From: an uncultured bacterium
GTDB lineage: Bacteria; Omnitrophota; Omnitrophia; Omnitrophales; Aquincolibacteriaceae
DNA: 64,000 bases
Assembly: GCA_964562525.1 (NCBI GenBank)
Contig: CAZLTL010000004.1
Location: 6,171-70,170, forward strand
Direction of reading: 5' to 3'
The translations under genes and the position numbers were made by a program. Below the pieces are notes generated by a model, which made no database searches, was not told the DNA's origin, and saw nothing but the letters and a program-made list of their open reading frames with translations. Of this stretch, positions 3,622 to 30,798 are shown one piece after another (the first letter of the stretch is position 1; each line of letters begins with the position of its first letter).

Positions 3622-4752
3622 TTATTTGGAGAGGAATGCGATGATCTCGCGGGCGGCGGATTGGCTGGCGGATTGATTGCCGAGAATTTGATGGAGTTTT
3701 TCAAACTTTGATTTCATTGCCATCATTTTTGCTGGGGTTTTAAGATAATCAACCGCCAGTGCGGCGATTTTTTTAGGGCGGGCATCATTTTGAATAAACT
3801 CAGGAATGACGGGCTCATCTAAAAGTAAATTGCCCAAGCCTAAATATTTTACCTTCACCAGCATTCTTCCCAAAATATAAGTGGTCCATTCTGTTTTATA
3901 AAGTAAGAAAAAAGGTGTTCCGAGCAGTGCTGTCTCAAGCGTTGCGGTCCCCGAAGCGACGAGCGCGAAATCCATCGCGCGTACGGTTTCTTCAAAAGAG
4001 GTTTCATGGAATTGAACAGAGACGCCGGCTTGGCGCGCAAGTTCGGTGTAAAGTTCCGGCGGCAGTCCGGGAGCACGGTTGGCGTGGAAAACAGCTTGCG
4101 GCAGTGTCACTTGAATTAGCTTTGCCGCTTCGAGCATAACCGGAAAAATGCGCTTCAGCTCTCTTAGCCTTGACCCTGAAAAGAGTCCAATATGGACCCC
4201 ATCCTTGAGTGCCAGCTTTTTTTTGCAGTTAAAAAGGCTGGGCACAGAATTTAATTTTTCAATGAGAGGGTGCCCAACATATTCCGCTTCAACATTCCGG
4301 GCGCGGTAAAAATCTTTTTCAAACGGCAGCAAAACGAGCATTTTTTGAATATGTTTTTGAACAACCTTAACTCTGTTTTGACCCCAAGCCCAAAGTTGCG
4401 GCGCGATGTAATAATAAATCGGCGCTGTTTTTGAAACCCGCTTTGCCAACCGCAGATTGAATGCAGGGGAATCAAGACAGACGATCAAGTCAGGCTTTTC
4501 TTTTTCGATGTGCGCGACAGTTTCTTCGAATATTTTTTTATAAAGCGGATACTTGCGGATGACGTCCATGAATCCGAGCGATGCGATTTTAGTCATGTCG
4601 CGGTGGAGCGTCATGCCAGCGGCTTGCATTTGCGGCCCGCCGATACCTTGAATTTCAAGCGAGGGAATGCTTTTCTTTAGTTCGTGAATGAGTTCCGCGG
4701 CGTGATGGTCCGCGGAAGTTTCAAGCGCAGTAATGAAGATGCGTTTGTGCAT
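3622..4752 (-). CDS. lpxB: lipid-A-disaccharide synthase
   Basis: LpxB-like N-terminus MHKRIFITALETSADHHAAELIHELKK..GIGGPQM, ~376 aa. Start chosen at the internal Met (the ORF track extends 29 codons further upstream). Confidence 0.85.
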   Translation of the reverse strand: MHKRIFITALETSADHHAAELIHELKKSIPSLEIQGIGGPQMQAAGMTLHRDMTKIASLGFMDVIRKYPLYKKIFEETVAHIEKEKPDLIVCLDSPAFNLRLAKRVSKTAPIYYYIAPQLWAWGQNRVKVVQKHIQKMLVLLPFEKDFYRARNVEAEYVGHPLIEKLNSVPSLFNCKKKLALKDGVHIGLFSGSRLRELKRIFPVMLEAAKLIQVTLPQAVFHANRAPGLPPELYTELARQAGVSVQFHETSFEETVRAMDFALVASGTATLETALLGTPFFLLYKTEWTTYILGRMLVKVKYLGLGNLLLDEPVIPEFIQNDARPKKIAALAVDYLKTPAKMMAMKSKFEKLHQILGNQSASQSAAREIIAFLSK

Positions 4753-4759
4753 TCTGGTT

Positions 4760-5707
4760 TTAGCTCTGGGCTGCGCCCAACCGCGTTTGAGCTTGCTTGT
4801 CGATCGAGTCGCGAATTTGAATCGCCAGCGCCAACGCATCCCGCGCGGCGGTGTCCGGTTTCCCTAGGCCTGAGCCATCGAGAATGCTGTTAATGAAAAA
4901 CCGCAGTTCCTCTTTAAGCGGCTCACCTTTTTGGATATCAATGCTTTCTTGTTCGATTTTGTCCTCAATTTTTCGGATGATTTTACAGCTTTGCGCTTCG
5001 TAATCCAGGGAGAGATAGCCGTTTTCCTGGAAAACACGCAGACGGCGTTGTTTTTCGAAAGTCAGACGGGATGCCGTCAGATTAGCCACCGCGCCGTTTT
5101 CAAAGCGAATGCGAACATTCGCGATGTCTTCATAGGGCGTCAAAACATGAATGCCCATCGCATCAATGTTCTTGATGGGGGATTTGATCAGTCCCAGCAA
5201 AATATCGAGATCGTGGATCATGAGGTCAAGTACAACGCCGCAATCATTAATGCGGCCTGTAAAAGGTCCAAGGCGATGAATCTCGAGGAAACCCACGTTT
5301 TGAATAATTTCGGTGATACGCTTAAAGCCGGGGTTGTGCCGTTCAAGGTGTCCCACTTGCAGGGCTAAATTTTTACGTTTGGCGATTTCAATCAGCTCGT
5401 TGGCGTCTTCCAGTTTGAGCGTGATTGGTTTCTCAATCAAAGTGTGAATGCCCGCATTCAAAAAATCCTTGGCGACGGCATGATGCGTGAAAGTGGGGGT
5501 AACGATACTGACGGCGTCCACTTTACCGATGAGCTGGCGGTGATCCGTAAAAAAAGCGGTTTGATATTCATCCGCTTTGATTTTGGTTTCAGGATTGGAA
5601 TCGCAAATGCCCACCAATTCCGCTTCCGGAAGTTCATGATAAATGCGGGTATGAATTTTCCCTAGATAACCGACACCGATAACACCGACACGCAGTTTTT
5701 TTGACAT
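4760..5707 (-). CDS. Gfo/Idh/MocA-family NAD(P)-dependent oxidoreductase (possible GnnA-like UDP-GlcNAc 3-dehydrogenase; inference only)
   Basis: N-terminal Rossmann motif VGVIGVGYLGKIH. Sits immediately upstream of lpxB in the same orientation with an 8 nt gap. Confidence 0.75.
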   Translation of the reverse strand: MSKKLRVGVIGVGYLGKIHTRIYHELPEAELVGICDSNPETKIKADEYQTAFFTDHRQLIGKVDAVSIVTPTFTHHAVAKDFLNAGIHTLIEKPITLKLEDANELIEIAKRKNLALQVGHLERHNPGFKRITEIIQNVGFLEIHRLGPFTGRINDCGVVLDLMIHDLDILLGLIKSPIKNIDAMGIHVLTPYEDIANVRIRFENGAVANLTASRLTFEKQRRLRVFQENGYLSLDYEAQSCKIIRKIEDKIEQESIDIQKGEPLKEELRFFINSILDGSGLGKPDTAARDALALAIQIRDSIDKQAQTRLGAAQS

Positions 5708-5845
5708 TCGGGAATTATATATTGAGTTGTGGCGAATGACCAGTTCTCAAACCCCCGTACTTCCCGGAAGTGCGGGGGTTTGAAATGCGCTTATCCCTTG
5801 TTGCGAGGTATCATGGTAGAATGCCGTCTGTTTGAAAGGGGAAAT

Positions 5846-7630
5846 ATGGCTTATCAGTCCGAAAAAAATTCGATGGTGATTTACCGCCGATTGCTTGAAT
5901 ACATCCGTCCGCATTTGTGGCGCTTTGGCATTGCGGTGGTGTGTATGGTGGGTTATGCCATTACGGTGGCTTTGGCTTCCGCGATTCCTTATCTGACAAT
6001 CAGCGGTTTGACCAATAAGCGCGAAGTGATTTTAAGCAGCCAGGTTATTTCGCATCTTCCTTTTGAATTTGATATCCGCTTTGGCGTGATTTGGCTGCCT
6101 GTTTTAATTTTTGCCATCATCGGTTTTAAGAGTTTCTTCGATTATGTCCTCAATTATCAAATGACCAATGTGGGAATTCGCGCTGTTCGCAAAGTGCGCG
6201 AAGATTTATTCGCGCATTTAACCCGGCTTTCCAGCGATTTTTACAGCCGCGGGCGAACAGGTGATTTTTTGAGCCGTATCACGAATGATGTCAGTGCCAT
6301 TCAGGGTGGCGTGACCGATGTTTTGACTGATTTGGTAAAACAGCCGATTACGGTGCTTTTCCTTCTTCCCCCGGTTTTTCTTTGGGGTGGTCCCAGCGGT
6401 TTGATTGCGGTCGGTGTTTTCTCGATCGTCGCTTTACCGATTGTGATTTTGGGAAAATCATTGCGCCGCACCACCAAAAAAATGCAGGAACGCACCGGTG
6501 AAATCACGGCGTTTATCGGCGAAAGTCTGATGGGAATGACGATTGTGAAAGCGTTCAACCAAGAAAACCGCATGATTGATAAATTTAACTCGATCAACCG
6601 CACTGTTTTTGATCATTATAAAAAAACTATCCGCGTTACGATTTTGCAAAGACCGATGATTGAAATGATCGGCGCGGCCGGCGCGGCGCTGGCTGTGGGA
6701 ATGTCGGTGGAGCAGTTTACACCCGAGCGGTTCACCTCGTTTCTTGTCGCGCTTTTCCTGCTTTATGAGCCGGTTAAAAAAATTAGCAAAGTCAATAACA
6801 CGATTCAGCAATCGGTCGCGGCGGGGCAGCGTATTTTTGAGATTTTAGATGAAGTTCCTTCTGTGCGTGATTTGCCTAATGCGATTCACTTTAAAGAGCC
6901 TGTTCGCGAAGTAGTTTATGACAAGATTTCTTTTAAATATCAAACCGGCGGCGAGATTTTTTCTGATTTTTCGCTTTCGGTAAAAGCGGGCGAAGTCCTG
7001 GCGATTGTCGGGCAAAGCGGGTCCGGCAAAAGCACCTTAGTGAATTTGTTGCCGCGTTTTTATGATCCCTCCGCCGGTGCCGTGCGCGTGAATGGAACTG
7101 ATTTAAGAAATATGACTTTAAAGTCATTACGCGACATGATTGCGATTGTGACTCAGGATACGATTTTGTTTAACGGGACTGTGCGTGAGAATATTGCTTA
7201 TGCCAATCCTCAGGCTTCGATGGCTGAAGTCGAAACTGCGGCGCAAGCGGCGCAAGCCCATACTTTTATTTCGGCGATGCCGCAAGGTTATGACACCAAT
7301 ATCGGCGACCGTGGTATGAATCTGTCGGGGGGGCAGCGACAAAGGCTTTCAATCGCACGCGCGCTTTTAAAAAATCCGCCGATTCTTATTTTGGATGAAG
7401 CGACTTCGAACCTTGATACGCAAAGCGAGTCTGAAGTTCAAATCGCGCTCGAAAATTTAATGAAAGGGCGCACCGTGTTTGTGATTGCGCATCGCTTATC
7501 AACCGTTAAAAAAGCCAACCGAATTATTGTTATGCGTCATGGTAAGGTCATTGAAGAGGGGACGCATGATGTGCTTCTCGCCAAAAACGGAATATATAAA
7601 GACCTTTACGATCTCCAATTCTCCGCTTAA
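5846..7630 (+). CDS. msbA: ABC transporter permease/ATPase fusion, MsbA-like lipid exporter
   Basis: Six-TM N-terminal domain plus Walker A GQSGSGKST, ABC signature LSGGQRQR and Walker B ILILDEAT. Start set at the Met preceded by AAGGGG (ORF track starts 39 codons earlier). Confidence 0.8.
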   Translation: MAYQSEKNSMVIYRRLLEYIRPHLWRFGIAVVCMVGYAITVALASAIPYLTISGLTNKREVILSSQVISHLPFEFDIRFGVIWLPVLIFAIIGFKSFFDYVLNYQMTNVGIRAVRKVREDLFAHLTRLSSDFYSRGRTGDFLSRITNDVSAIQGGVTDVLTDLVKQPITVLFLLPPVFLWGGPSGLIAVGVFSIVALPIVILGKSLRRTTKKMQERTGEITAFIGESLMGMTIVKAFNQENRMIDKFNSINRTVFDHYKKTIRVTILQRPMIEMIGAAGAALAVGMSVEQFTPERFTSFLVALFLLYEPVKKISKVNNTIQQSVAAGQRIFEILDEVPSVRDLPNAIHFKEPVREVVYDKISFKYQTGGEIFSDFSLSVKAGEVLAIVGQSGSGKSTLVNLLPRFYDPSAGAVRVNGTDLRNMTLKSLRDMIAIVTQDTILFNGTVRENIAYANPQASMAEVETAAQAAQAHTFISAMPQGYDTNIGDRGMNLSGGQRQRLSIARALLKNPPILILDEATSNLDTQSESEVQIALENLMKGRTVFVIAHRLSTVKKANRIIVMRHGKVIEEGTHDVLLAKNGIYKDLYDLQFSA

Positions 7631-7793
7631 TAAATCACTGAAAATCATTCGTCTGCTTTGTTGAAAGAATCATCCGCTTGTGCGCTGTGCGTTTTTAGCA
7701 CAGCTCCGCGCGTCTTCTCCTTCGCCGCGCATCCAAATAATTTTGAGTGATTCCCCTGGGAAGCTTCCTTCTTTCGCATTCGAGTGAAGATAT

Positions 7794-21438: not shown

Positions 21439-21515
<77 letters not shown>

Positions 21516-21525
21516 TATAACGCTA

Positions 21526-21582: not shown

Positions 21583-21604
21583 CTGTTAACACTTTTGTTA
21601 ACAG
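21583..21604. repeat. half-copy of the island GTTAACA-palindrome element (GTTAACACTTTTGTTAACAG)
   Basis: Shares GTTAACACTTTTG with the full repeats at 28323, 30077 and 30584. Sits 68 nt after the tRNA 3' end and 26 nt before the first island gene. Confidence 0.5.
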
Positions 21605-21629: not shown

Positions 21630-22460
21630 ATGACAGAATGTATTTCTCAAGCCCTTAAAGACCTTTTGCCGGAGCATCCGCACAAGCGATATGCCCCTAT
21701 AGAGGTTTGCATTTATTGCGGCAGCAAACAAAATTTAAGTGATGAGCATATTATCCCGTATGGTTTTGGCGGTAGATGGGTGCTTCCCAAAGCTAGCTGT
21801 TTTAATTGTGCAAAAAAAACGAGTCAATTTGAAATGGTTTGTCTTCGTACAATGTATGGGCCATTACGCCAGCTATACGATCTCCCTAGCAGAAAAGGGA
21901 AAGCAGATAAGTTACCTTTAAAAATTAAATATGTGCCATCTAATGAATGGCAAACAGTTTTGGTGGATCAGGTTGATTATCCTTTTTTAGTTGGTTTCCC
22001 TTATTTCTCATTGCCTAATCTGGTTTCAGGTGCGAAAGATGCGGAGAGAACTGGAGCAACAACCAAGCGCATATGGATACGGGGCGCTTCTGCATATGTA
22101 AATTTCGATGAGCATCTAAAAGCTTTAAGTCAGCGATTAAAAGCGTACGAGTTATTTCCAGAGTTTCATCTTCATGTTAAAGAATTTTGTCAGATGCTTG
22201 TTAAGACGGCTTATTCATATGCAGTGGCTGAGCTGGGTTATGGCGTATTTAAGCCTTTTCTGTTACCGCACATCGTCCAAGATGAGTTATCCAATTGTGC
22301 AGACTTTATCGGTAGCTTAGAAAAAGATGAGATTCCGGGGAAAGCACTTCACGAATTATTTATCTGCAATACTATGAGAGGCGATATCGCGGTAAGAGTG
22401 CGCTTTTTAGCAAAATTAGGCACGCCAACTTATTTTGTTGTTGTGGGATCAGTTAATTGA
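21630..22460 (+). CDS. HNH-nuclease-domain protein with a C-terminal domain of unknown function
   Basis: N-terminal CIYCGSK..SDEHIIPYGFGG..CFNCAKKT matches the C-x2-C / D-H-I-x-P / N / C-x2-C HNH pattern. The ~200 aa C-terminal region has no recognisable motif. Confidence 0.55.
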   Translation: MTECISQALKDLLPEHPHKRYAPIEVCIYCGSKQNLSDEHIIPYGFGGRWVLPKASCFNCAKKTSQFEMVCLRTMYGPLRQLYDLPSRKGKADKLPLKIKYVPSNEWQTVLVDQVDYPFLVGFPYFSLPNLVSGAKDAERTGATTKRIWIRGASAYVNFDEHLKALSQRLKAYELFPEFHLHVKEFCQMLVKTAYSYAVAELGYGVFKPFLLPHIVQDELSNCADFIGSLEKDEIPGKALHELFICNTMRGDIAVRVRFLAKLGTPTYFVVVGSVN

Positions 22461-22473
22461 GGAATTTGATTAA

Positions 22474-23214
22474 ATGATTTGTCGGTATTGCAATCAGGAA
22501 ACAAAGCTCATAAAGTCCCATATAGTTCCCGAGAAGTTTTATTTGCAGGCGTTAGACCGGACTCAAAAAAACGACAAGCTTATTATCATTGATAAGCGAA
22601 AAAAATATACACCTGCATCTCCAATCGGACTTTATGACCTTGGCATTTTATGCGCTTCATGTGACGGTAAGCTTGGTGTCTTTGACAACGCCGCACAGTT
22701 GTTATTTCTAAAAGACATTCAACGATACAAGTCCCCAGATAAAGATTTGTATGTTTTGCCCTTATCTGCTTTTGACTACCAAAAAATAAAATTATTCATT
22801 GTTTCAGTGCTGTGGAGAGCATCAATATCTACACTAGAAGCTTTTGAGGCTGTTCAGCTCGGCTATAAATACGAAAAAATAGCATTAGATATTATAAAAG
22901 ATCCATCAAAAGATGATGATGACACATTTGCTTTTTTTGTTTTGAAATTTAAGAATAAGCCCAACTTAAGAATGGATGGGATATTTGTGCCTCCAATGAG
23001 GAACAAAATCGATGGTATAAATAGCTATAGGTTTGTTTTTGCCGGGTATGTTTTTCATATTAAAGTTGATAGTCGCAAGTATCCTCCTCTATTTCATGGT
23101 CTTTGTTTGAGTTCAAAGAGAGACTTTTTAATAATCGAGACCAGCCCTGAGAATGAAAAATTCACATTGGAACATATGAACGGAATACGGATTGCTAGGC
23201 AAAATTTACAGTAA
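22474..23214 (+). CDS. HNH-nuclease-domain protein, paralog of the upstream gene
   Basis: CRYCNQ..KSHIVPEKF..CASCDGK HNH-like N-terminus. GAGGA RBS 10 nt upstream. AT-rich with an unknown C-terminal domain. Confidence 0.55.
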   Translation: MICRYCNQETKLIKSHIVPEKFYLQALDRTQKNDKLIIIDKRKKYTPASPIGLYDLGILCASCDGKLGVFDNAAQLLFLKDIQRYKSPDKDLYVLPLSAFDYQKIKLFIVSVLWRASISTLEAFEAVQLGYKYEKIALDIIKDPSKDDDDTFAFFVLKFKNKPNLRMDGIFVPPMRNKIDGINSYRFVFAGYVFHIKVDSRKYPPLFHGLCLSSKRDFLIIETSPENEKFTLEHMNGIRIARQNLQ

Positions 23215-23621: not shown

Positions 23622-23837
23622 ATGAAGAAAAAAGCACGCACTCCGCTCAAATCAATCCGCATTTACTGCACCACAGTCTGTTCCAGTCAGTTAAAAGAAG
23701 TTCGCTTGTGTTCTATGAGCGATTGTCCGCTTTATATCTATCGGTTTGGGCGAAATCCATCCAGATCAGGCATTGGTGGGACCTTAGATAAGATTACTCG
23801 AAAAAATGATGTTGAGTCGGGCAAAACTACAAAATAA
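23622..23837 (+). CDS. small Cys-rich (putative zinc-ribbon) protein; alternative frame 23576-23791 is equally possible
   Basis: 71 aa with C-x3-C ... C-x4-C spacing. AGAGGAAAAATAT RBS before the ATG. Confidence 0.3.
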   Translation: MKKKARTPLKSIRIYCTTVCSSQLKEVRLCSMSDCPLYIYRFGRNPSRSGIGGTLDKITRKNDVESGKTTK

Positions 23838-23847
23838 GGGCATTTCC

Positions 23848-24078
23848 ATGAATAAATCAGAATCATATTCGACCCAAAATTTATATGAGGCGGCCTTTTG
23901 TTTCTGCAAGGGTTTTAAACTTGCCGGTAAACGCCGGGAAGGTAGCAAGGTAACTGTTCTTTTTGAAGGTAAAAATGTGCGCGAAGAAGCCATTAAATTT
24001 TACAACGGTGGAAAAATCGAAGCCAAGGCGCTTACCGATGCGTACCGAACTCTCAAAGATTATATTTTCGAGAGATAA
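23848..24078 (+). CDS. small conserved mobile-element protein (DUF5659-like, recalled from memory)
   Basis: YSTQNLYEAAFCFCKGFKL..FYNG..DAYRTLKDYI pattern that I associate with a small phage/ICE-borne family. Start Met is uncertain. Confidence 0.4.
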   Translation: MNKSESYSTQNLYEAAFCFCKGFKLAGKRREGSKVTVLFEGKNVREEAIKFYNGGKIEAKALTDAYRTLKDYIFER

Positions 24079-24612: not shown

Positions 24613-24846
24613 ATGGATACCGTCTCCGTTGTTGGTAGTTATTTAAATATGCGCGAAGCTGGAAAATACATTGGCCAGAGTTATCGCTGGATGCAAAGAA
24701 ATTACATTGATTTGATCAAGAACGGAGTTCCTGTGTTTCGATTACCCAAAGACTCGCCTAAAGGCCGGTTAGTGTTTGAAAGGGCCGGTTTGGATCAATA
24801 CATGTTTCAATGTCGCATTGAAGGTAACTTTGAAACCTTTGGGTAA
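24613..24846 (+). CDS. excisionase/AlpA-like helix-turn-helix DNA-binding protein
   Basis: 77 aa. LNMREAGKYIGQSYRWM..GVPVFRLPK..GRLVFERAGLDQYM resembles the HTH_17/Xis family. Located directly upstream of the integrase. Confidence 0.55.
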   Translation: MDTVSVVGSYLNMREAGKYIGQSYRWMQRNYIDLIKNGVPVFRLPKDSPKGRLVFERAGLDQYMFQCRIEGNFETFG

Positions 24847-24903: not shown

Positions 24904-24924
24904 GTGTTAACAGTGTTTGTTAAC
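24904..24924. repeat. half-copy of the island GTTAACA-palindrome element (GTGTTAACAGTGTTTGTTAACG)
   Basis: Matches the first half of the full repeat TGTTAACAGTAGTTGTTAAC. Confidence 0.45.
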
Positions 24925-25162: not shown

Positions 25163-26197
25163 ATGGCTAGCATCTTTAAACGGAATAAAACCTGGTATGT
25201 GTCCTTCCTCGCAAGTGGAAAGCAGGTAGTTAAGAGCTTGAAAACTAGCGATGAGAAGCTCGCTAGGCATTTGAAGAAGGAATTTGAGGTGAAGTCCCGC
25301 CTTAAAGAACTTCGCACTGAAAAACGCATTTCAGTCGAGGAATATTGCAAGCAATACCTAGATGAAGTGACATATCGGAAGCAATCGACCAATGTTGCTG
25401 ATTATTCCCGGATTCGAGACTTTTTAGGAACGCATGGAAAGAAAACCATCAACAGCATTAACTACGATGACATCAGGGCTTATCTGAAACGCTATGAGTC
25501 TAAATCTCCCAAGACCTATAACGAGGTTATTCTGACCCTGAAACGATTTTTTAGACTGGCCGTCGAGCGAAGCTATATCCTGAAAAATCCGGTAGTAGGT
25601 TTTCGCCATAAAAAAGTTCCTCAAACATTGCCGCGCTTTCTGACAGACGAAGAATACGGCACTTTGGAGAAATTATCCATAGATGAGGGTATCTATCCAA
25701 TGGTGGTTGTGGCCAGGTACACGGGATTGAGGCTGGCAGAGCTCTTACATCTTGAATGGCAAGATTTTGATTGGGGACGGAAACTGGTTAGGGTGCTGAA
25801 CAAACCCAAATTCAATCATACGGTTAAAAATTATCATACGCGAGTTGTGCCGGTTTCTGATGAGTTGAGAGATAAGTTATTGCCCTATATCAAATCAGAA
25901 GGGCTTTGTTTTCCCGGCCCCGAAGGAAGTCCCTATTACCATGAGGGGCCTCGAAAACTCATCCGCCGAATTATTGATAAGTCAGGCTTGCGCGAAGGCC
26001 GACGCATGGGATGGCACGAATTTCGTCATACTTTTGCTTCACGATTAGCTCAGGAAGGTATTTCTCTCTATAAAATTTCTAAGTGGCTTGGACACTCCGA
26101 TTTTAAAACCACACAGATTTATGCTCATTTCGCTCCTATATACGATGATGATATAGAAAAGCTATCTATAAAGCCTATTTTCTCAAAAATCGCTTAA
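25163..26197 (+). CDS. site-specific tyrosine recombinase (phage-type integrase)
   Basis: N-terminal arm-binding-like domain (KRNKTWYVSF). Catalytic R..H-x-x-R..Y residues (LRLAEL, HEFRHTFAS, IYAH). GAGGAT RBS. Confidence 0.9.
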   Translation: MASIFKRNKTWYVSFLASGKQVVKSLKTSDEKLARHLKKEFEVKSRLKELRTEKRISVEEYCKQYLDEVTYRKQSTNVADYSRIRDFLGTHGKKTINSINYDDIRAYLKRYESKSPKTYNEVILTLKRFFRLAVERSYILKNPVVGFRHKKVPQTLPRFLTDEEYGTLEKLSIDEGIYPMVVVARYTGLRLAELLHLEWQDFDWGRKLVRVLNKPKFNHTVKNYHTRVVPVSDELRDKLLPYIKSEGLCFPGPEGSPYYHEGPRKLIRRIIDKSGLREGRRMGWHEFRHTFASRLAQEGISLYKISKWLGHSDFKTTQIYAHFAPIYDDDIEKLSIKPIFSKIA

Positions 26198-26322: not shown

Positions 26323-27039
26323 ATGACCAGCAGCATTAAAAATTCAAAGCTCGATAATTTTCAGTTAGTTGCTTTTTGTCCAGGAATACAAATAGCGGAT
26401 AAATTAAAAGCTGCGAGTGAAATAAATAATGCGGCGCGGGGTCTTTTTGATGGTGATCCCACGATTTTTCCAATCCCAGGCGAAGCGCCTCCCGAAGTTC
26501 CTCGCATTATATTAAAATCAAAAGATAATTTGCGTCTTTTTCAAGTTGCGGGCAATCGTATTGATTTTATTTATAAATTATCCGATGCAGAAAGAGAATC
26601 TGAAGTATTGAAGGTAGGCAAGGAACTATTTCAAATTTTCTCATCTATTTGTGCAGCCATATTGGAACAAAACGGAACAAAATTTACAAGAACAGCATTG
26701 GTTACTAATTGGGCAATTTTCTTAGAGGAAGAATCTCCTAATTATTTGGTAAAAACATATACAAAAGAACCGGCAATTTTTAATTCACCAGCAGCTTTTG
26801 AACTTCATAACCTTAATAAAAGTGCATTTTCCAAGTGTAAAGTAAACCAATGGTTAAGAATAAAATCGGCCCAAACTCCTCAGGGAACTCCGAATGTTTT
26901 AAATGTAATTGTAGATATAAATTCATTAGCGGAAGAAGCATATGAAGTTAATACAGATTTTTTAAGTTCTTTTCTCTCAGAGGCGATCAATGAGACTTCA
27001 AAGATTATCAAGTCTCATTTTGGAACGATTTTAAAATGA
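26323..27039 (+). CDS. hypothetical protein, cassette gene 1 of 3
   Basis: 238 aa with no recognisable motif. Stop overlaps the next start (ATGA). Confidence 0.45.
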   Translation: MTSSIKNSKLDNFQLVAFCPGIQIADKLKAASEINNAARGLFDGDPTIFPIPGEAPPEVPRIILKSKDNLRLFQVAGNRIDFIYKLSDAERESEVLKVGKELFQIFSSICAAILEQNGTKFTRTALVTNWAIFLEEESPNYLVKTYTKEPAIFNSPAAFELHNLNKSAFSKCKVNQWLRIKSAQTPQGTPNVLNVIVDINSLAEEAYEVNTDFLSSFLSEAINETSKIIKSHFGTILK

Positions 27040-27686
27040 GAACCATTCGCCTTTCTGAAAAGTCTATTTTTGGCAATTGTGCAGTTCAAACAGTGAATGC
27101 ACCTCAAAACTCTTCTTCTCCTGAGCCCAATCTTTTTTTGAAAAACTGTGTAAATGAGGATCTGTTTAAAATTCTTGTTCAAAGGGTTGATGGTTCGCAA
27201 AATTTTCAAATTGAAGATATATCCAATTTGCCCGTAGTTACTGTCCGCGAAGCTCCCTCATTAATATTTGGAGCTTATGTAATGCAGCTGGTAAACCATG
27301 TTTCTCGTCCTGAAAGTTTTCATATTGTCGCAAGTGGGGATTCGGTCATTGATATGTCGACAATTATCTGTGATTTTAAAAAATTGATACCCCAAGAGAA
27401 AGCAGATGAGCGGGAGCTTCTTTTTTTAGAGGCGGCAAAGCGATTTAAACAATTTCCTCAAGTCAAAGCGATTTATATTCAGGAGTGCCGTGAAGATTTG
27501 TTTATTTATGGTTTGTTGGATATTAAAGAATACGATGATGATCTGATGGATTCATTACTTGATGAAGAATATGAGATAAGGCAACAATTTAAAGATTTTA
27601 TACTTTCTTTCTTCTATCCCCCTATTGGAGACACCGACCGAAAAGATGTAGTACATCCTGCTTCACGTTGCATTTTTTCGAGGTAG
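27036..27686 (+). CDS. hypothetical protein, cassette gene 2 of 3
   Basis: 216 aa, acidic, no recognisable motif. Translationally coupled on both sides. Confidence 0.45.
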   Translation: MRTIRLSEKSIFGNCAVQTVNAPQNSSSPEPNLFLKNCVNEDLFKILVQRVDGSQNFQIEDISNLPVVTVREAPSLIFGAYVMQLVNHVSRPESFHIVASGDSVIDMSTIICDFKKLIPQEKADERELLFLEAAKRFKQFPQVKAIYIQECREDLFIYGLLDIKEYDDDLMDSLLDEEYEIRQQFKDFILSFFYPPIGDTDRKDVVHPASRCIFSR

Positions 27687-28321
27687 TTGTGGCAGATTAC
27701 TCTGTGCATTATGCCCAAGCTACTCACAACAGATTGACCGCGACCAAACTTGTTGATGAACCACCTCACCACGATTGGGGAATAACGGCCGCCTTTTACT
27801 CAGCCATCCATTATTTTGAATGCTGGCTGTTTGGCGAAACGGAAAAACACACCGAAACGAGTATTCCGGTAGACCCAAATAATAACAGATGGAAATTCTC
27901 ACCGCATGCGTGGCGAGAGAAATTAGTTGAGCAGAAAATGTCACGAAATGCGTTTAAAGCCTTCCGAAAGTTGAGGGAAAATAGTGAGACTTCAAGATAT
28001 TTGACATTTTCAATGGCCCCAATCTCGATGCCCGCGGCACAGTTTTTCAAACCAGAGGCAGCAAAAAAAATAGTCGCAGTAGAGCTTGAAACATTTCTCT
28101 CCGAACTTAGAATCCCATGGAGAAAATTTGTTTATTCTTTAGAGTTGGATCAGTCTATTGGCCCCTTGGCGCCATTTATTATCAGAAGCATGTTTGCTTC
28201 ATTTAGTGACCAAACACAATTTCTTCAAACATCCAAATCCGATTTAACCAAGATTTTTGGCGCACAAACGTCGGCGTTGATACGAGCAGTTGAAGCTAAA
28301 GGTTTTAGTTTCTCGGTCTAA
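27668..28321 (+). CDS. hypothetical protein, cassette gene 3 of 3
   Basis: 217 aa. Overlaps gene 2 by 19 nt. No recognisable motif. Confidence 0.45.
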   Translation: MHFFEVVVADYSVHYAQATHNRLTATKLVDEPPHHDWGITAAFYSAIHYFECWLFGETEKHTETSIPVDPNNNRWKFSPHAWREKLVEQKMSRNAFKAFRKLRENSETSRYLTFSMAPISMPAAQFFKPEAAKKIVAVELETFLSELRIPWRKFVYSLELDQSIGPLAPFIIRSMFASFSDQTQFLQTSKSDLTKIFGAQTSALIRAVEAKGFSFSV

Positions 28322-28322
28322 A

Positions 28323-28368
28323 TTTGTTAACAATAGTTGTTAACACTTTTGATGGTAAATAGCGGTAA
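28323..28368 (+). repeat. island repeat copy A (TTTGTTAACAATAGTTGTTAACACTTTTGATGGTAAATAGCGGTAA)
   Basis: Starts 2 nt after the stop of cassette gene 3, with a TATAAT at 28385-28390 downstream. Precedes the transglutaminase-like gene. Confidence 0.7.
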
Positions 28369-28397
28369 GATCTTTAGATTAGAGTATAATTCAGCTT

Positions 28398-29549
28398 ATG
28401 TTTTTTTATTCGATTTCGTTCTTCCGCCTGCTGCGAATTGCTTTACCCTCATTGATAGTTCTTATGTTTTTACAAACTTATCTTCATGCGCAAGAGAACG
28501 TGGGCTCTATACCAACAAGCTCCATTCTAGAAAAGGTCGAAGAATTAGCAAACACGCCAGAAGCTAATATTGATCTTGAAAAAGAAATCTTTGAGCTTCT
28601 AAAGATTACTAATCGGGATTTGCTGGGTAAAGATATTGATATTCAAATTTATCAATCTCAAATTAGTGAGTTGGCACAGGAGTTAGCGGTTTATTTGGAA
28701 GGCGAGAGTGATCCTTACAAACGTATAAATAGAATGAATGAGTTTCTTTTTAAAGAAAAAAAGTTTTCAGCTGATTTTGGCAAAATCAACCCGAATGCAC
28801 CGCTACTAACTTCTGTTCTTGATGGCAATCCTGGGATGTGTGACACGTTGTCACTCCTTTATCGATTGGTGGGATTGCGACTTGGAATGCCACTGGAAAG
28901 TATTTTTCTTACAAACCATACGTTTGTACGCTATGTCTCGAATGGTTTTAGCATCAATATCGAAGCCACTGATGCCGGAAAATCGTATAACGATGACTGG
29001 TATGTTGAACAGTTCAAGCTCTCTGGTTCTAAAACAGATTTTTTTTCTGTCCCTGGAGCCAAGGCAACTATTTTTGCTTATTTGATTAACCTTGGCGCCC
29101 ATTATAGAACGCACGGTCGTCTTGATGATTCAATCGCAATCCACCGCAAGGTAGTCGATTTGTATCCAAATATATTTTTGGCTCACATCAATTTGGGGTG
29201 GGGCTACTTGGGTAAAAAAATGTTTGATGAGGCCATAAAGGAATATGAGGTCGCCTTGACTTTGTTTCCGAATGAATCTCTTGCTTGGCGTATGTTAGGA
29301 GCTGCGAGCGTTCAGAAAAATATGAAAACAGATGCAATAGCATATTTGGAGAAGGCGCTTGCTCTTAATAAAGATGATGAAGAGGCAAAAGATTATCTTC
29401 GTATTGCAAAACAGTTGCCGGATGCAAATCGTAAAGGGAGAGATTGGGGAATGGACTCATATTATAAAGAGCTGGGTATCGCTCCCAAGAGTAAAAAAAT
29501 AAAGGAGGAGGTTGCAAATGAGAATCGACCAGTGGTCAACCAATGGTAA
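28398..29549 (+). CDS. secreted transglutaminase-like cysteine-protease-fold protein with C-terminal TPR repeats
   Basis: Signal peptide. Core GMCDTLSLLY..LGMP..FLTNHTFVRY resembles the transglutaminase-like Cys/His core. C-terminal TPR-like repeats (EAIKEYEVALTLFP.., AIAYLEKALALN). Confidence 0.6.
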   Translation: MFFYSISFFRLLRIALPSLIVLMFLQTYLHAQENVGSIPTSSILEKVEELANTPEANIDLEKEIFELLKITNRDLLGKDIDIQIYQSQISELAQELAVYLEGESDPYKRINRMNEFLFKEKKFSADFGKINPNAPLLTSVLDGNPGMCDTLSLLYRLVGLRLGMPLESIFLTNHTFVRYVSNGFSINIEATDAGKSYNDDWYVEQFKLSGSKTDFFSVPGAKATIFAYLINLGAHYRTHGRLDDSIAIHRKVVDLYPNIFLAHINLGWGYLGKKMFDEAIKEYEVALTLFPNESLAWRMLGAASVQKNMKTDAIAYLEKALALNKDDEEAKDYLRIAKQLPDANRKGRDWGMDSYYKELGIAPKSKKIKEEVANENRPVVNQW

Positions 29550-30054: not shown

Positions 30055-30076
30055 GATATTGTGATGCGCTTGGATA

Positions 30077-30134
30077 CCCAGCGGTCTATTTGTTAACAGT
30101 AGTTGTTAACACTTTTGATGGCAAATAGCGGTTA
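30077..30134 (+). repeat. island repeat copy B (ACCCAGCGGTCTATTTGTTAACAGTAGTTGTTAACACTTTTGATGGCAAATAGCGGTTAA)
   Basis: Differs from copy C at only two positions across ~58 bp. Precedes the 30161 gene. Confidence 0.7.
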
Positions 30135-30160
30135 AAAGTGAATGAAAAAAAGGGGGAGGG

Positions 30161-30529: not shown

Positions 30530-30583
30530 AGCCACAGAAATCTTGCTATTTGCTCTAGATGTCGCTTAGCAATTTTTGACTTA

Positions 30584-30641
30584 CCCAACGGTCTATTTGT
30601 TAACAGTAGTTGTTAACACTTTTGATGGTAAATAGCGGTAA
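30584..30641 (+). repeat. island repeat copy C
   Basis: ACCCAACGGTCTATTTGTTAACAGTAGTTGTTAACACTTTTGATGGTAAATAGCGGTAA. Last copy, ~105 nt before attR. Confidence 0.7.
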
Positions 30642-30735
30642 ATATCGGTCAAACTCGGATAAATAAATTTTCAAAAAATTCTCCTAACTCCTTTATTTTT
30701 GGTTATATCGGTCAATGTTGGATAATATCGGTAAA
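30642..30735. repeat. three ATATCGGT(C/A)AA direct repeats (candidate integrase arm-type sites) proximal to attR
   Basis: atatcggtcaaactcggataa (30642), atatcggtcaatgttggataa (30705) and atatcggtaaa (30725). Confidence 0.5.
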
Positions 30736-30748
30736 TGTTTTGAAGCTC

Positions 30749-30798
30749 GCTCATAACCCAAAGGTCCCAGGTTCAAATCCTGGCCCCGCTACCATATA
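30749..30798 (+). repeat. attR: 50-bp exact direct repeat of the tRNA-fMet 3' half (anticodon loop to CCA plus TATA)
   Basis: gctcataacccaaaggtcccaggttcaaatcctggccccgctaccatata is identical to 21470-21519. Confidence 0.9.

Follow-up and report, generated by a model that had tools for sequence, protein, structure and literature searches.

Two HNH_5-type proteins at the attL end of a tRNA-Met island in an uncultured Omnitrophota bacterium as candidate stand-alone defence nucleases

What do the first two genes of a genomic island encode, and do they act together? The question is raised by a stretch of 64,000 nucleotides (nt), hereafter the window, from the genome of an uncultured Omnitrophales bacterium (GenBank assembly GCA_964562525.1, contig CAZLTL010000004.1, positions 6,171 to 70,170), in which an island inserted at a tRNA-Met gene opens with two adjacent genes, ORF1 and ORF2, whose products begin with an HNH-like module. 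A first reading made from the sequence alone (the sequence-only reading) regarded them as a tandem pair of paralogous nuclease-domain proteins and as possible defence effectors. The explanation favoured here, with a probability of about 55%, is that each encodes a His-Me-finger nuclease that stands alone and is independent of the other, and that both genes are defence cargo in the slot next to attL. HNH nuclease genes are common on genomic islands, and the general picture is therefore an ordinary one. The wider interest lies in the family of ORF2, which is very large, spread across phyla and present on plasmids, has been missed by Pfam, NCBIfam and PADLOC, and is found in restriction-modification (R-M) operons and defence islands. 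The idea that the pair works as a system is corrected below, a point that matters to anyone intending to clone ORF1 and ORF2.

The closest relative of the island, a sister island occupying the same tRNA-Met att site, is carried by the 8030-nt Logan contig L105 (SRR7589087) and is referred to by that name. The features on which the argument depends are the following.

21439-21515, plus strand: tRNA-Met gene (CAT), integration target of the island (ARAGORN)
21470-21519: attL, a 50-bp perfect direct repeat of the tRNA 3' end (repeat search, 100% identity, repeat family D3)
21630-22460, plus strand: ORF1, 276 amino acids (aa), family-1 HNH_5 protein (open reading frame (ORF) list, Pfam match and AlphaFold2 (AF2) model)
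21708-21833, plus strand: HNH_5 module of ORF1, residues 27-68 (C27-x2-C30, E39-H40, P43, G47-G48, C57-x2-C60, E68)
22459-22463, plus strand: GAGGA ribosome-binding site for ORF2, overlapping the ORF1 stop codon, 10 nt before the ATG (read from the sequence)
22474-23214, plus strand: ORF2, 246 aa, family 2; N-terminus HNH_5-like but divergent; signature helix F-x2-S-x-L-W-R
22480-22686, plus strand: HNH_5-like module of ORF2, residues 3-71 (C3-x2-C6, [S/A]15-H16, P19, C60-x2-C63, [E/D]64, [D/E]71)
25163-26197, plus strand: tyrosine integrase of the island (precomputed Pfam Phage_integrase match on an identical Logan contig; 83% aa identity to the L105 integrase)
30749-30798: attR, where the 50-bp repeat recurs and the island ends on the right (repeat search)

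The two repeats bound a 9.3-kb tRNA-Met island with a GC content of 38.7%, against 46.9% in both flanks. ORF1 and then ORF2 are the first genes past attL, on the same strand and 13 nt apart, exactly where the sequence-only reading had placed them, and the motifs that it quoted agree with the coordinates and translations. Its description of the pair as the most AT-rich stretch of the window was mistaken: together the genes have 38.0% GC (40.4% for ORF1, 35.6% for ORF2) and rank about 52nd in AT-richness among 1,249 windows of equal size, and the AT-richest stretch, with 35% GC, lies at 26.0-27.6 kb. Judged by their sequences, ORF1 and ORF2 are real genes, since each aligns over its full length with a conserved family. 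They are probably co-transcribed, because of the 13-nt gap and the GAGGA motif overlapping the ORF1 stop codon.

The two protein families and their N-terminal module

ORF1 matches Pfam HNH_5 (PF14279) over residues 27-64 with 28.8 bits (E 1.2e-6), narrowly above the curated gathering cut-off of 27.5 bits, and is a borderline member of that family. Family 1 comprises at least 210 homologs that align over the full length, are about 280 aa long and have 45-67% identity. They are annotated as 'HNH endonuclease' or 'hypothetical', most with a precomputed PF14279 match, and their hosts belong to the Planctomycetota, Nitrospirota, Desulfobacterota, Omnitrophota, Zixibacteria and the Alpha-, Beta- and Gammaproteobacteria. 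The AF2 model of ORF1 is a single compact body of high confidence (predicted local distance difference test (pLDDT) 92, predicted template modelling score (pTM) 0.90). In two loci, L011 (5847-6854) and L015 (6762-7502), the family-1 gene is flanked by other proteins composed of an HNH_5 head and a body of about 250 aa, with the canonical CxxCN. A C-terminal helix motif, [IL]AKIA[FYC], is common to family 1, to these neighbours and to a neighbour without HNH module in locus L116 (3837-4811), a possible sign of a larger modular superfamily with a C-terminal body that no Pfam model covers.

ORF2 resembles HNH_5 but is not a member by the Pfam rule. It finds no match in Pfam (for HNH_5, none at E<=1), NCBIfam or PADLOC. 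The HNH-like module claimed by the sequence-only reading is thus confirmed by Pfam in ORF1 and lacks such a match in ORF2 itself. Three PHROG families of unassigned function do match ORF2, the best being phrog_19960 (3e-17). A profile built from the 20 first ORF2 homologs recovers at least 8,583 representatives of clusters at 50% identity at E<=1e-3, 2,226 of them at E<=1e-30, and the best 150 of the 8,583 are mostly about 240-255 aa long. Family 2 is accordingly a very large family without a Pfam, NCBIfam or PADLOC model. Among the best 150 members, 33 match HNH_5 at E<=0.1 (best 3.9e-4), all under the Pfam cut-off; the next commonest Pfam family is matched by 3 of the 150, and Endonuclease_7 and HNH_2 also appear. 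The AF2 model of ORF2 reaches a pLDDT of 86 and a pTM of 0.86, and a comparison with BFVD returned one match, an uncharacterised protein, at a template modelling score (TM) of 0.72. Neither family was found described in the literature.

The evidence for a nuclease active site lies in the N-terminal module, which reads VCIYCGSK…DEHIIPYGFGG…CFNCAKK in the translation of ORF1 and ICRYCNQ…KSHIVPEKF…CASCDGK in that of ORF2. In column counts over about 120 family-1 sequences and 150 family-2 members, the putative general-base His is invariant in both families (H40 in 119/119, H16 in 148/148), and the four-Cys putative zinc site (C27/C30/C57/C60 and C3/C6/C60/C63, respectively) is kept in at least 97% of sequences. 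In family 1, the whole set of C27, C30, E39, H40, P43, G47, G48, C57, C60 and E68 is invariant in 119-120 sequences. AF2 predicts beta-beta-alpha elements in the positions expected of such a finger, namely strands at 37-40 and 50-56 and a helix at 58-75 in ORF1, and strands at 12-18 and 53-60 and a helix at 61-79 in ORF2, where a variable insert of about 35 aa separates the two strands. The canonical HNH ligand pair consists of Asp/Glu/His preceding the catalytic His and Asn/His where the helix begins. Each family retains one of the two and has, in addition, an invariant acidic residue seven residues on in the helix (E68; D/E71). From these conserved residues it is concluded that both proteins carry a putative HNH_5-type His-Me finger with a non-canonical ligand set, and catalysis by either of them appears plausible. 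If such activity is real, the combination of an invariant catalytic His with unusual ligands would widen the scope of functional His-Me fingers.

The zinc ribbon C-x2-C…[DE]-H-[IV]-[IV]-P…C-x2-C at the N-terminus relates ORF1 and ORF2 to Pfam HNH_5 and to His-Me groups 1 and 8 (Jablonska et al. 2017, PMC5714182); group 8, which consists of HNH_5 only, comprises 158 bacterial proteins with no assigned function in that same study. Both families differ from HNH_5 in a conserved body of about 200 aa for which there is no model and no fold match in the PDB, and in the residue after the second CxxC, which is Asn in canonical HNH_5 proteins ('CDCCN' in the L011 neighbour, 'CKSCN' in that of L015), A/S/C in family 1 and E/D in family 2. 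The C-terminal part of neither ORF1 nor ORF2 matched anything known, in line with the sequence-only reading, which had recognised no motif there. At the level of PDB sequences, the best matches of the family-1 profile were the HNH nicking endonuclease of phage GVE2 (4h9d) and Cas9-like HNH domains, at E-values of 0.08-0.6 that are not significant alone. The GVE2 enzyme and the Cas9/IscB-like entries 8zq9, 8w2z and 9lgi align with family 1 on both CxxC motifs, [DE]H, the Pro and GG; unlike family 1 they keep CxxCN, and each is either a stand-alone domain of 112 aa or one part of a very large effector. Among PDB sequences, a search with the family-2 profile gave no relevant match, and searches with ORF1 and ORF2 as single sequences gave none at all.

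Genomic contexts and the case for defence cargo

The distribution of family-1 genes was followed in 26 distinct loci, made up of 17 GTDB genomes, the window, the sister island and seven metagenome contigs. Their neighbours include Hypoth_Ymh, FRG and TIR proteins, an IS200 transposase and other HNH_5 proteins. Among the loci are found a HigB/A-like pair together with a C5-methyltransferase with Vsr and a large TIR protein; an integrase with a MobA relaxase, Fic and a methylase; Schlafen/AlbA_2 with Fic; and IS110. On plasmids, family-1 genes are accompanied by DUF262, IS5, HipA and PDDEXK proteins. A tRNA-linked island as the general home of family 1 was considered and rejected, there being no adjacent tRNA in 17 other loci. 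In one contig (L114, from GCA_040960315.1) a solitary family-1 homolog stands between a ribosomal-protein/rpoA/rplQ operon and uvrA. The gene upstream of the tRNA-Met in the window, abutting the island, is one that we take by eye to be uvrB-like, and the parallel with uvrA in L114 is probably a coincidence.

Among the neighbours of family 2 (110 proteins at 32 loci) are type I specificity subunits, type IIG enzymes, Mrr, ResIII, a C5-methylase, DpnII and matches to mad2/mad5. In locus L076 (192-4426) the family-2 gene lies between an HSDR_N_2/N6_Mtase/Eco57I methyltransferase and its specificity subunit, and in L071 (1683-7144) it follows such a methyltransferase and an NYN-domain protein and is itself followed by a 461-aa protein without Pfam match. 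Accessory defence genes linked to R-M systems are classically found in just such places. Plasmid islands with family 2 also hold a type ISP R-M enzyme and a restriction endonuclease; on a Sphingomonas plasmid, the island contains a type ISP enzyme, a DUF4238 protein and SbcCD-like genes besides the family-2 gene. Elsewhere a family-2 gene follows clpB, or has femAB on one side and a mur ligase on the other. No common partner emerges among the 110 neighbours, and those of family 1 are likewise heterogeneous.

The sister island supplies a further indication. L105 shares with the window the integrase, the Xis-like protein (60% identity) and an ORF1 homolog which, at 67% identity, is the closest relative of ORF1. 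Its post-integrase cargo (4872-7718) encodes a 948-aa Dsr1-like protein (PADLOC Dsr1, E 4e-50, profile positions 306-1164), preceded at 4172-4900 by a gene for a 242-aa protein of unassigned type; by their sequences, the two genes may represent a Dsr1 variant with a swapped N-terminal effector. Since L105 carries this Dsr1-like gene, islands of this type ferry defence cargo.

According to the favoured explanation, each protein would form one compact body in which the N-terminal zinc-stabilised HNH_5-type finger provides the active site for cleavage and the other 200 aa or so, which are specific to each family, set target choice or activation. Each gene alone would protect the host or the island from invading DNA. 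Because no methylase, immunity gene or partner is conserved beside either family, and neither a methylase nor an immunity gene turned up in the scanned ORFs of the island, such a nuclease must spare self DNA on its own. This might be achieved by acting only on modified or foreign DNA, in the manner of type IV restriction, or by staying latent until infection, as in abortive infection. That the proteins cut nucleic acid, that they serve in defence and how they would tell self from non-self are inferred from genomic context and from what is generally known about HNH nucleases in defence. Its presence in R-M operons and defence islands gives reasonable grounds for regarding family 2 as a candidate single-gene defence family that has so far gone unrecognised. 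A more far-reaching proposal, which can be held only tentatively, is that family 2 and perhaps family 1 are new single-gene anti-phage proteins that combine a rewired His-Me finger with a new sensor or recognition fold, the adjacency of HNH_5 proteins then reflecting a modular superfamily of immune genes.

Comparison with described systems delimits this explanation. HNH-type nucleases occur in defence islands in Septu, as PtuB with the PtuA ATPase, and in pairs of an AAA_15/21 ATPase and an HNH protein (PMC11464382); PF14279 has been used in annotating HNH effectors of this kind. ORF1 and ORF2 differ from these systems in matching no PADLOC model and in having no ATPase partner among the scanned ORFs of the island. 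At one family-2 locus (L060) an AAA_15/21 gene is present, 1 kb away. Type II R-M would imply an adjacent cognate methyltransferase, and neither ORF1 nor ORF2 has one: the scanned island ORFs contain no methylase domain and match no R-M model, and an adjacent methyltransferase is lacking at most homolog loci too. McrA-like type IV enzymes offer what would be an analogy of mechanism, in that their HNH nuclease acts alone, has a distinct part for recognition and lacks a cognate methyltransferase. In McrA-type enzymes the HNH domain is at the C-terminus, and no similarity of sequence or fold between them and ORF1 or ORF2 was found.

DUF4238 (PF14022) is a single-gene anti-phage system that protects against T7 (Rousset et al. 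2022, PMC9122126). It is like family 2 in size, in an N-terminal H-x-[IV]-P-x-F-[YL] and in a helix motif further on, F-x2-S-[IV]-x-[WF]-R, and unlike it in having no cysteines; on the Sphingomonas plasmid the DUF4238 gene is adjacent to the family-2 gene. Homology between them was rejected: hhalign gave a probability of 0.9%, hmmsearch was non-significant in both directions, and 1 of 150 family-2 members touched the Pfam model (E 0.015).

Weighing the alternatives

Several observations count against two stand-alone defence nucleases. When the AF2 models were compared with the PDB by Foldseek, as the sequence-only reading had proposed, neither ORF1 nor ORF2 found a match at E<0.1. Neither protein matches any model of PADLOC-DB v2.0.0 at E<=1, in agreement with the earlier statement that no known system could be assigned. 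In family 1 the Glu before the His (E39) is invariant, but A/S/C61 replaces the canonical Asn/His after the second CxxC; in family 2, S/A15 stands in place of the acidic residue before the His, yet an invariant E/D64 occupies the Asn position. Many homologs of both families lie amid housekeeping genes (ClpB, Mur ligase, a ribosomal/rpoA operon, ValRS) with no defence gene nearby, and the defence association of both families is qualitative, without a background rate. Finally, the 13-nt spacing, together with a second adjacency of the two families in L022, a metagenome-assembled genome of the Zixibacteria, leaves some room for cooperation between the two proteins.

The unusual ligand sets bear most directly on the alternative that the HNH modules are catalytically dead and that the proteins are zinc-finger DNA-binding regulators, anti-defence factors or partition-type factors. 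Family 1 is without the loop Asn and the helix Asn/His, and family 2 has no Asp/Glu preceding the His; the models match no nuclease structure, the missing immunity or methylase partner would be easier to explain with a harmless protein, and an island-specific palindrome pair is located directly upstream of ORF1. The alternative nevertheless looks rather unlikely in view of the invariance of the general-base His and of two acidic residues per family, with the helix position i or i+7 involved, since the pattern of a His plus acidic residues is typical of active His-Me fingers. Some active His-Me fingers, such as I-PpoI and Serratia nuclease, use a single protein metal ligand. Moreover, full-length conservation with 45-67% identity across phyla points to strong selection on the whole body.

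Still less probable is that ORF1 and ORF2 form one two-component system, either a heteromeric nuclease composed of half-degenerate active sites or an effector with its regulator. Paralogy does not extend past the N-terminus. BLASTP aligns ORF1 with ORF2 over 62 aa of the N-terminal module (E 0.002), and hhalign gives a probability of 15% over 22 columns, rising to 27% with profiles of 120 and 167 sequences, where confidence is confined to the surroundings of the two CxxC motifs and H-I-I-P; with small and large profiles alike, only the CxxC…H..P…CxxC module is aligned. The term 'paralogous' was thus wrong for the two in any practical sense. A likeness between 'LWIRGAS' and 'LWRASIS' was not counted, these segments being a strand and a helix, respectively, in the predicted structures.

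Co-occurrence, the check that the sequence-only reading had suggested for the pair, turned out to be rare. A family-2 neighbour accompanies family 1 in 2 of the 26 loci, the window and L022, where the gene order is reversed, and is absent from the other 24; at none of 82 family-2 loci (407 kb) was a family-1 gene found nearby. The sister island keeps its ORF1 homolog without ORF2, and a 142-aa gene overlaps the start of that homolog instead. Given these counts and the absence of ORF2 from L105, ORF1 and ORF2 are not a conserved two-gene system. Their difference in GC content (40.4% and 35.6%) also speaks for two independent genes. In favour of cooperation can be cited the short gap with a ribosome-binding site overlapping the ORF1 stop codon, the L022 adjacency, the loss of complementary metal ligands in the two families, and the presence of an HNH_5-type neighbour at 4 of the 26 family-1 loci, which is far beyond chance. 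In L011 and L015, however, the second HNH_5-type protein, one or two genes from the family-1 gene, belongs to other families and has canonical residues, and unrelated defence genes are expected to cluster in such islands. The adjacency of the ORF1-ORF2 type is still far from random and is attributed to shared residence in variable or defence islands. The earlier suggestion of defence effectors remains plausible through the defence and mobile context, which is a matter of association, and does not hold for a paired system.

That the two genes are instead selfish or element-serving nucleases, of homing type or devoted to transfer, replication or addiction of the island, is similarly improbable: HNH proteins are commonly homing endonucleases, ORF1 is kept with the Int/Xis backbone in two related islands whose other cargo differs, and family 2 matches the PHROG families and the BFVD protein mentioned above as well as two contigs in IMG/VR, but a search of 50,697 phage genomes found no homolog of ORF1 or ORF2, one of IMG/VR found none for family 1, no homolog was seen within an intron, intein or structural module, no integrase was seen at 23 of the 26 family-1 loci, and the sizes and conserved 200-aa C-terminal bodies are unlike those of short HNH homing or terminase-associated proteins. 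An ordinary phage homing endonuclease, which the sequence-only reading had named as one of the outcomes that would overturn it, is disfavoured because of this absence from phage genomes and, for family 1, from IMG/VR. The locus itself is a chromosomal tRNA island in which no phage structural genes were found, and neither gene has the intron, intein, packaging or structural location of homing and terminase-associated HNH proteins.

Other features of the island

The remaining features of the island are the following.

21584-21603: TGTTAACA palindrome pair, 27 nt upstream of the ORF1 start codon
23094-23450, minus strand: 118-aa antisense ORF overlapping the 3' end of ORF2 by 121 nt, called on the identical Logan contig, no Pfam match
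23806-24078: DUF5659 protein, just under the Pfam cut-off (E 7e-5; 23.0 vs 23.6 bits)
24613-24846: 77-aa Xis-like protein, 60% identical in L105
24939-25076, minus strand: 45-aa ribbon-helix-helix protein
26323-27039, 27036-27686 and 27668-28321: three overlapping genes on one strand, for proteins of 238, 216 and 217 aa, no Pfam or PADLOC match
28398-29549: 383-aa protein with transglutaminase-like and TPR domains
28309-28369, 30075-30135 and 30582-30642: 61-nt repeat carrying the palindrome pair, three copies, 79-95% identical

The antisense ORF is probably spurious. The three-gene block at 26323-28321, with 35% GC, occupies the post-integrase cargo slot, which in the sister island holds the Dsr1-like gene, and it is a candidate three-gene cargo system. 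As with ORF1 and ORF2, the other ORFs of the island match no PADLOC model. The N-terminus of the 383-aa protein is hydrophobic and, by eye, signal-like.

Scans for promoters and terminators yielded nothing beyond shuffled expectation except a terminator hairpin of the tRNA and the palindrome. All nine copies of TGTTAACA in the 64-kb window fall inside the island, where 0.65 would be expected. Its sites are 21584-21603, 24905-24912, 28325-28345, 30091-30111 and 30598-30618, with most copies paired 12-13 nt apart, upstream of island genes and close to both att ends; in L105 it recurs at equivalent positions (110, 2750 and 7727-7747). By sequence and position, the palindrome is either a putative operator or a putative arm-type site for Int/Xis, and in the former case the regulator might perhaps be the ribbon-helix-helix protein. 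Every copy of the 61-nt repeat precedes a gene block, the last one lying directly before attR, and this layout resembles a cassette-type accretion of cargo at the attR arm.

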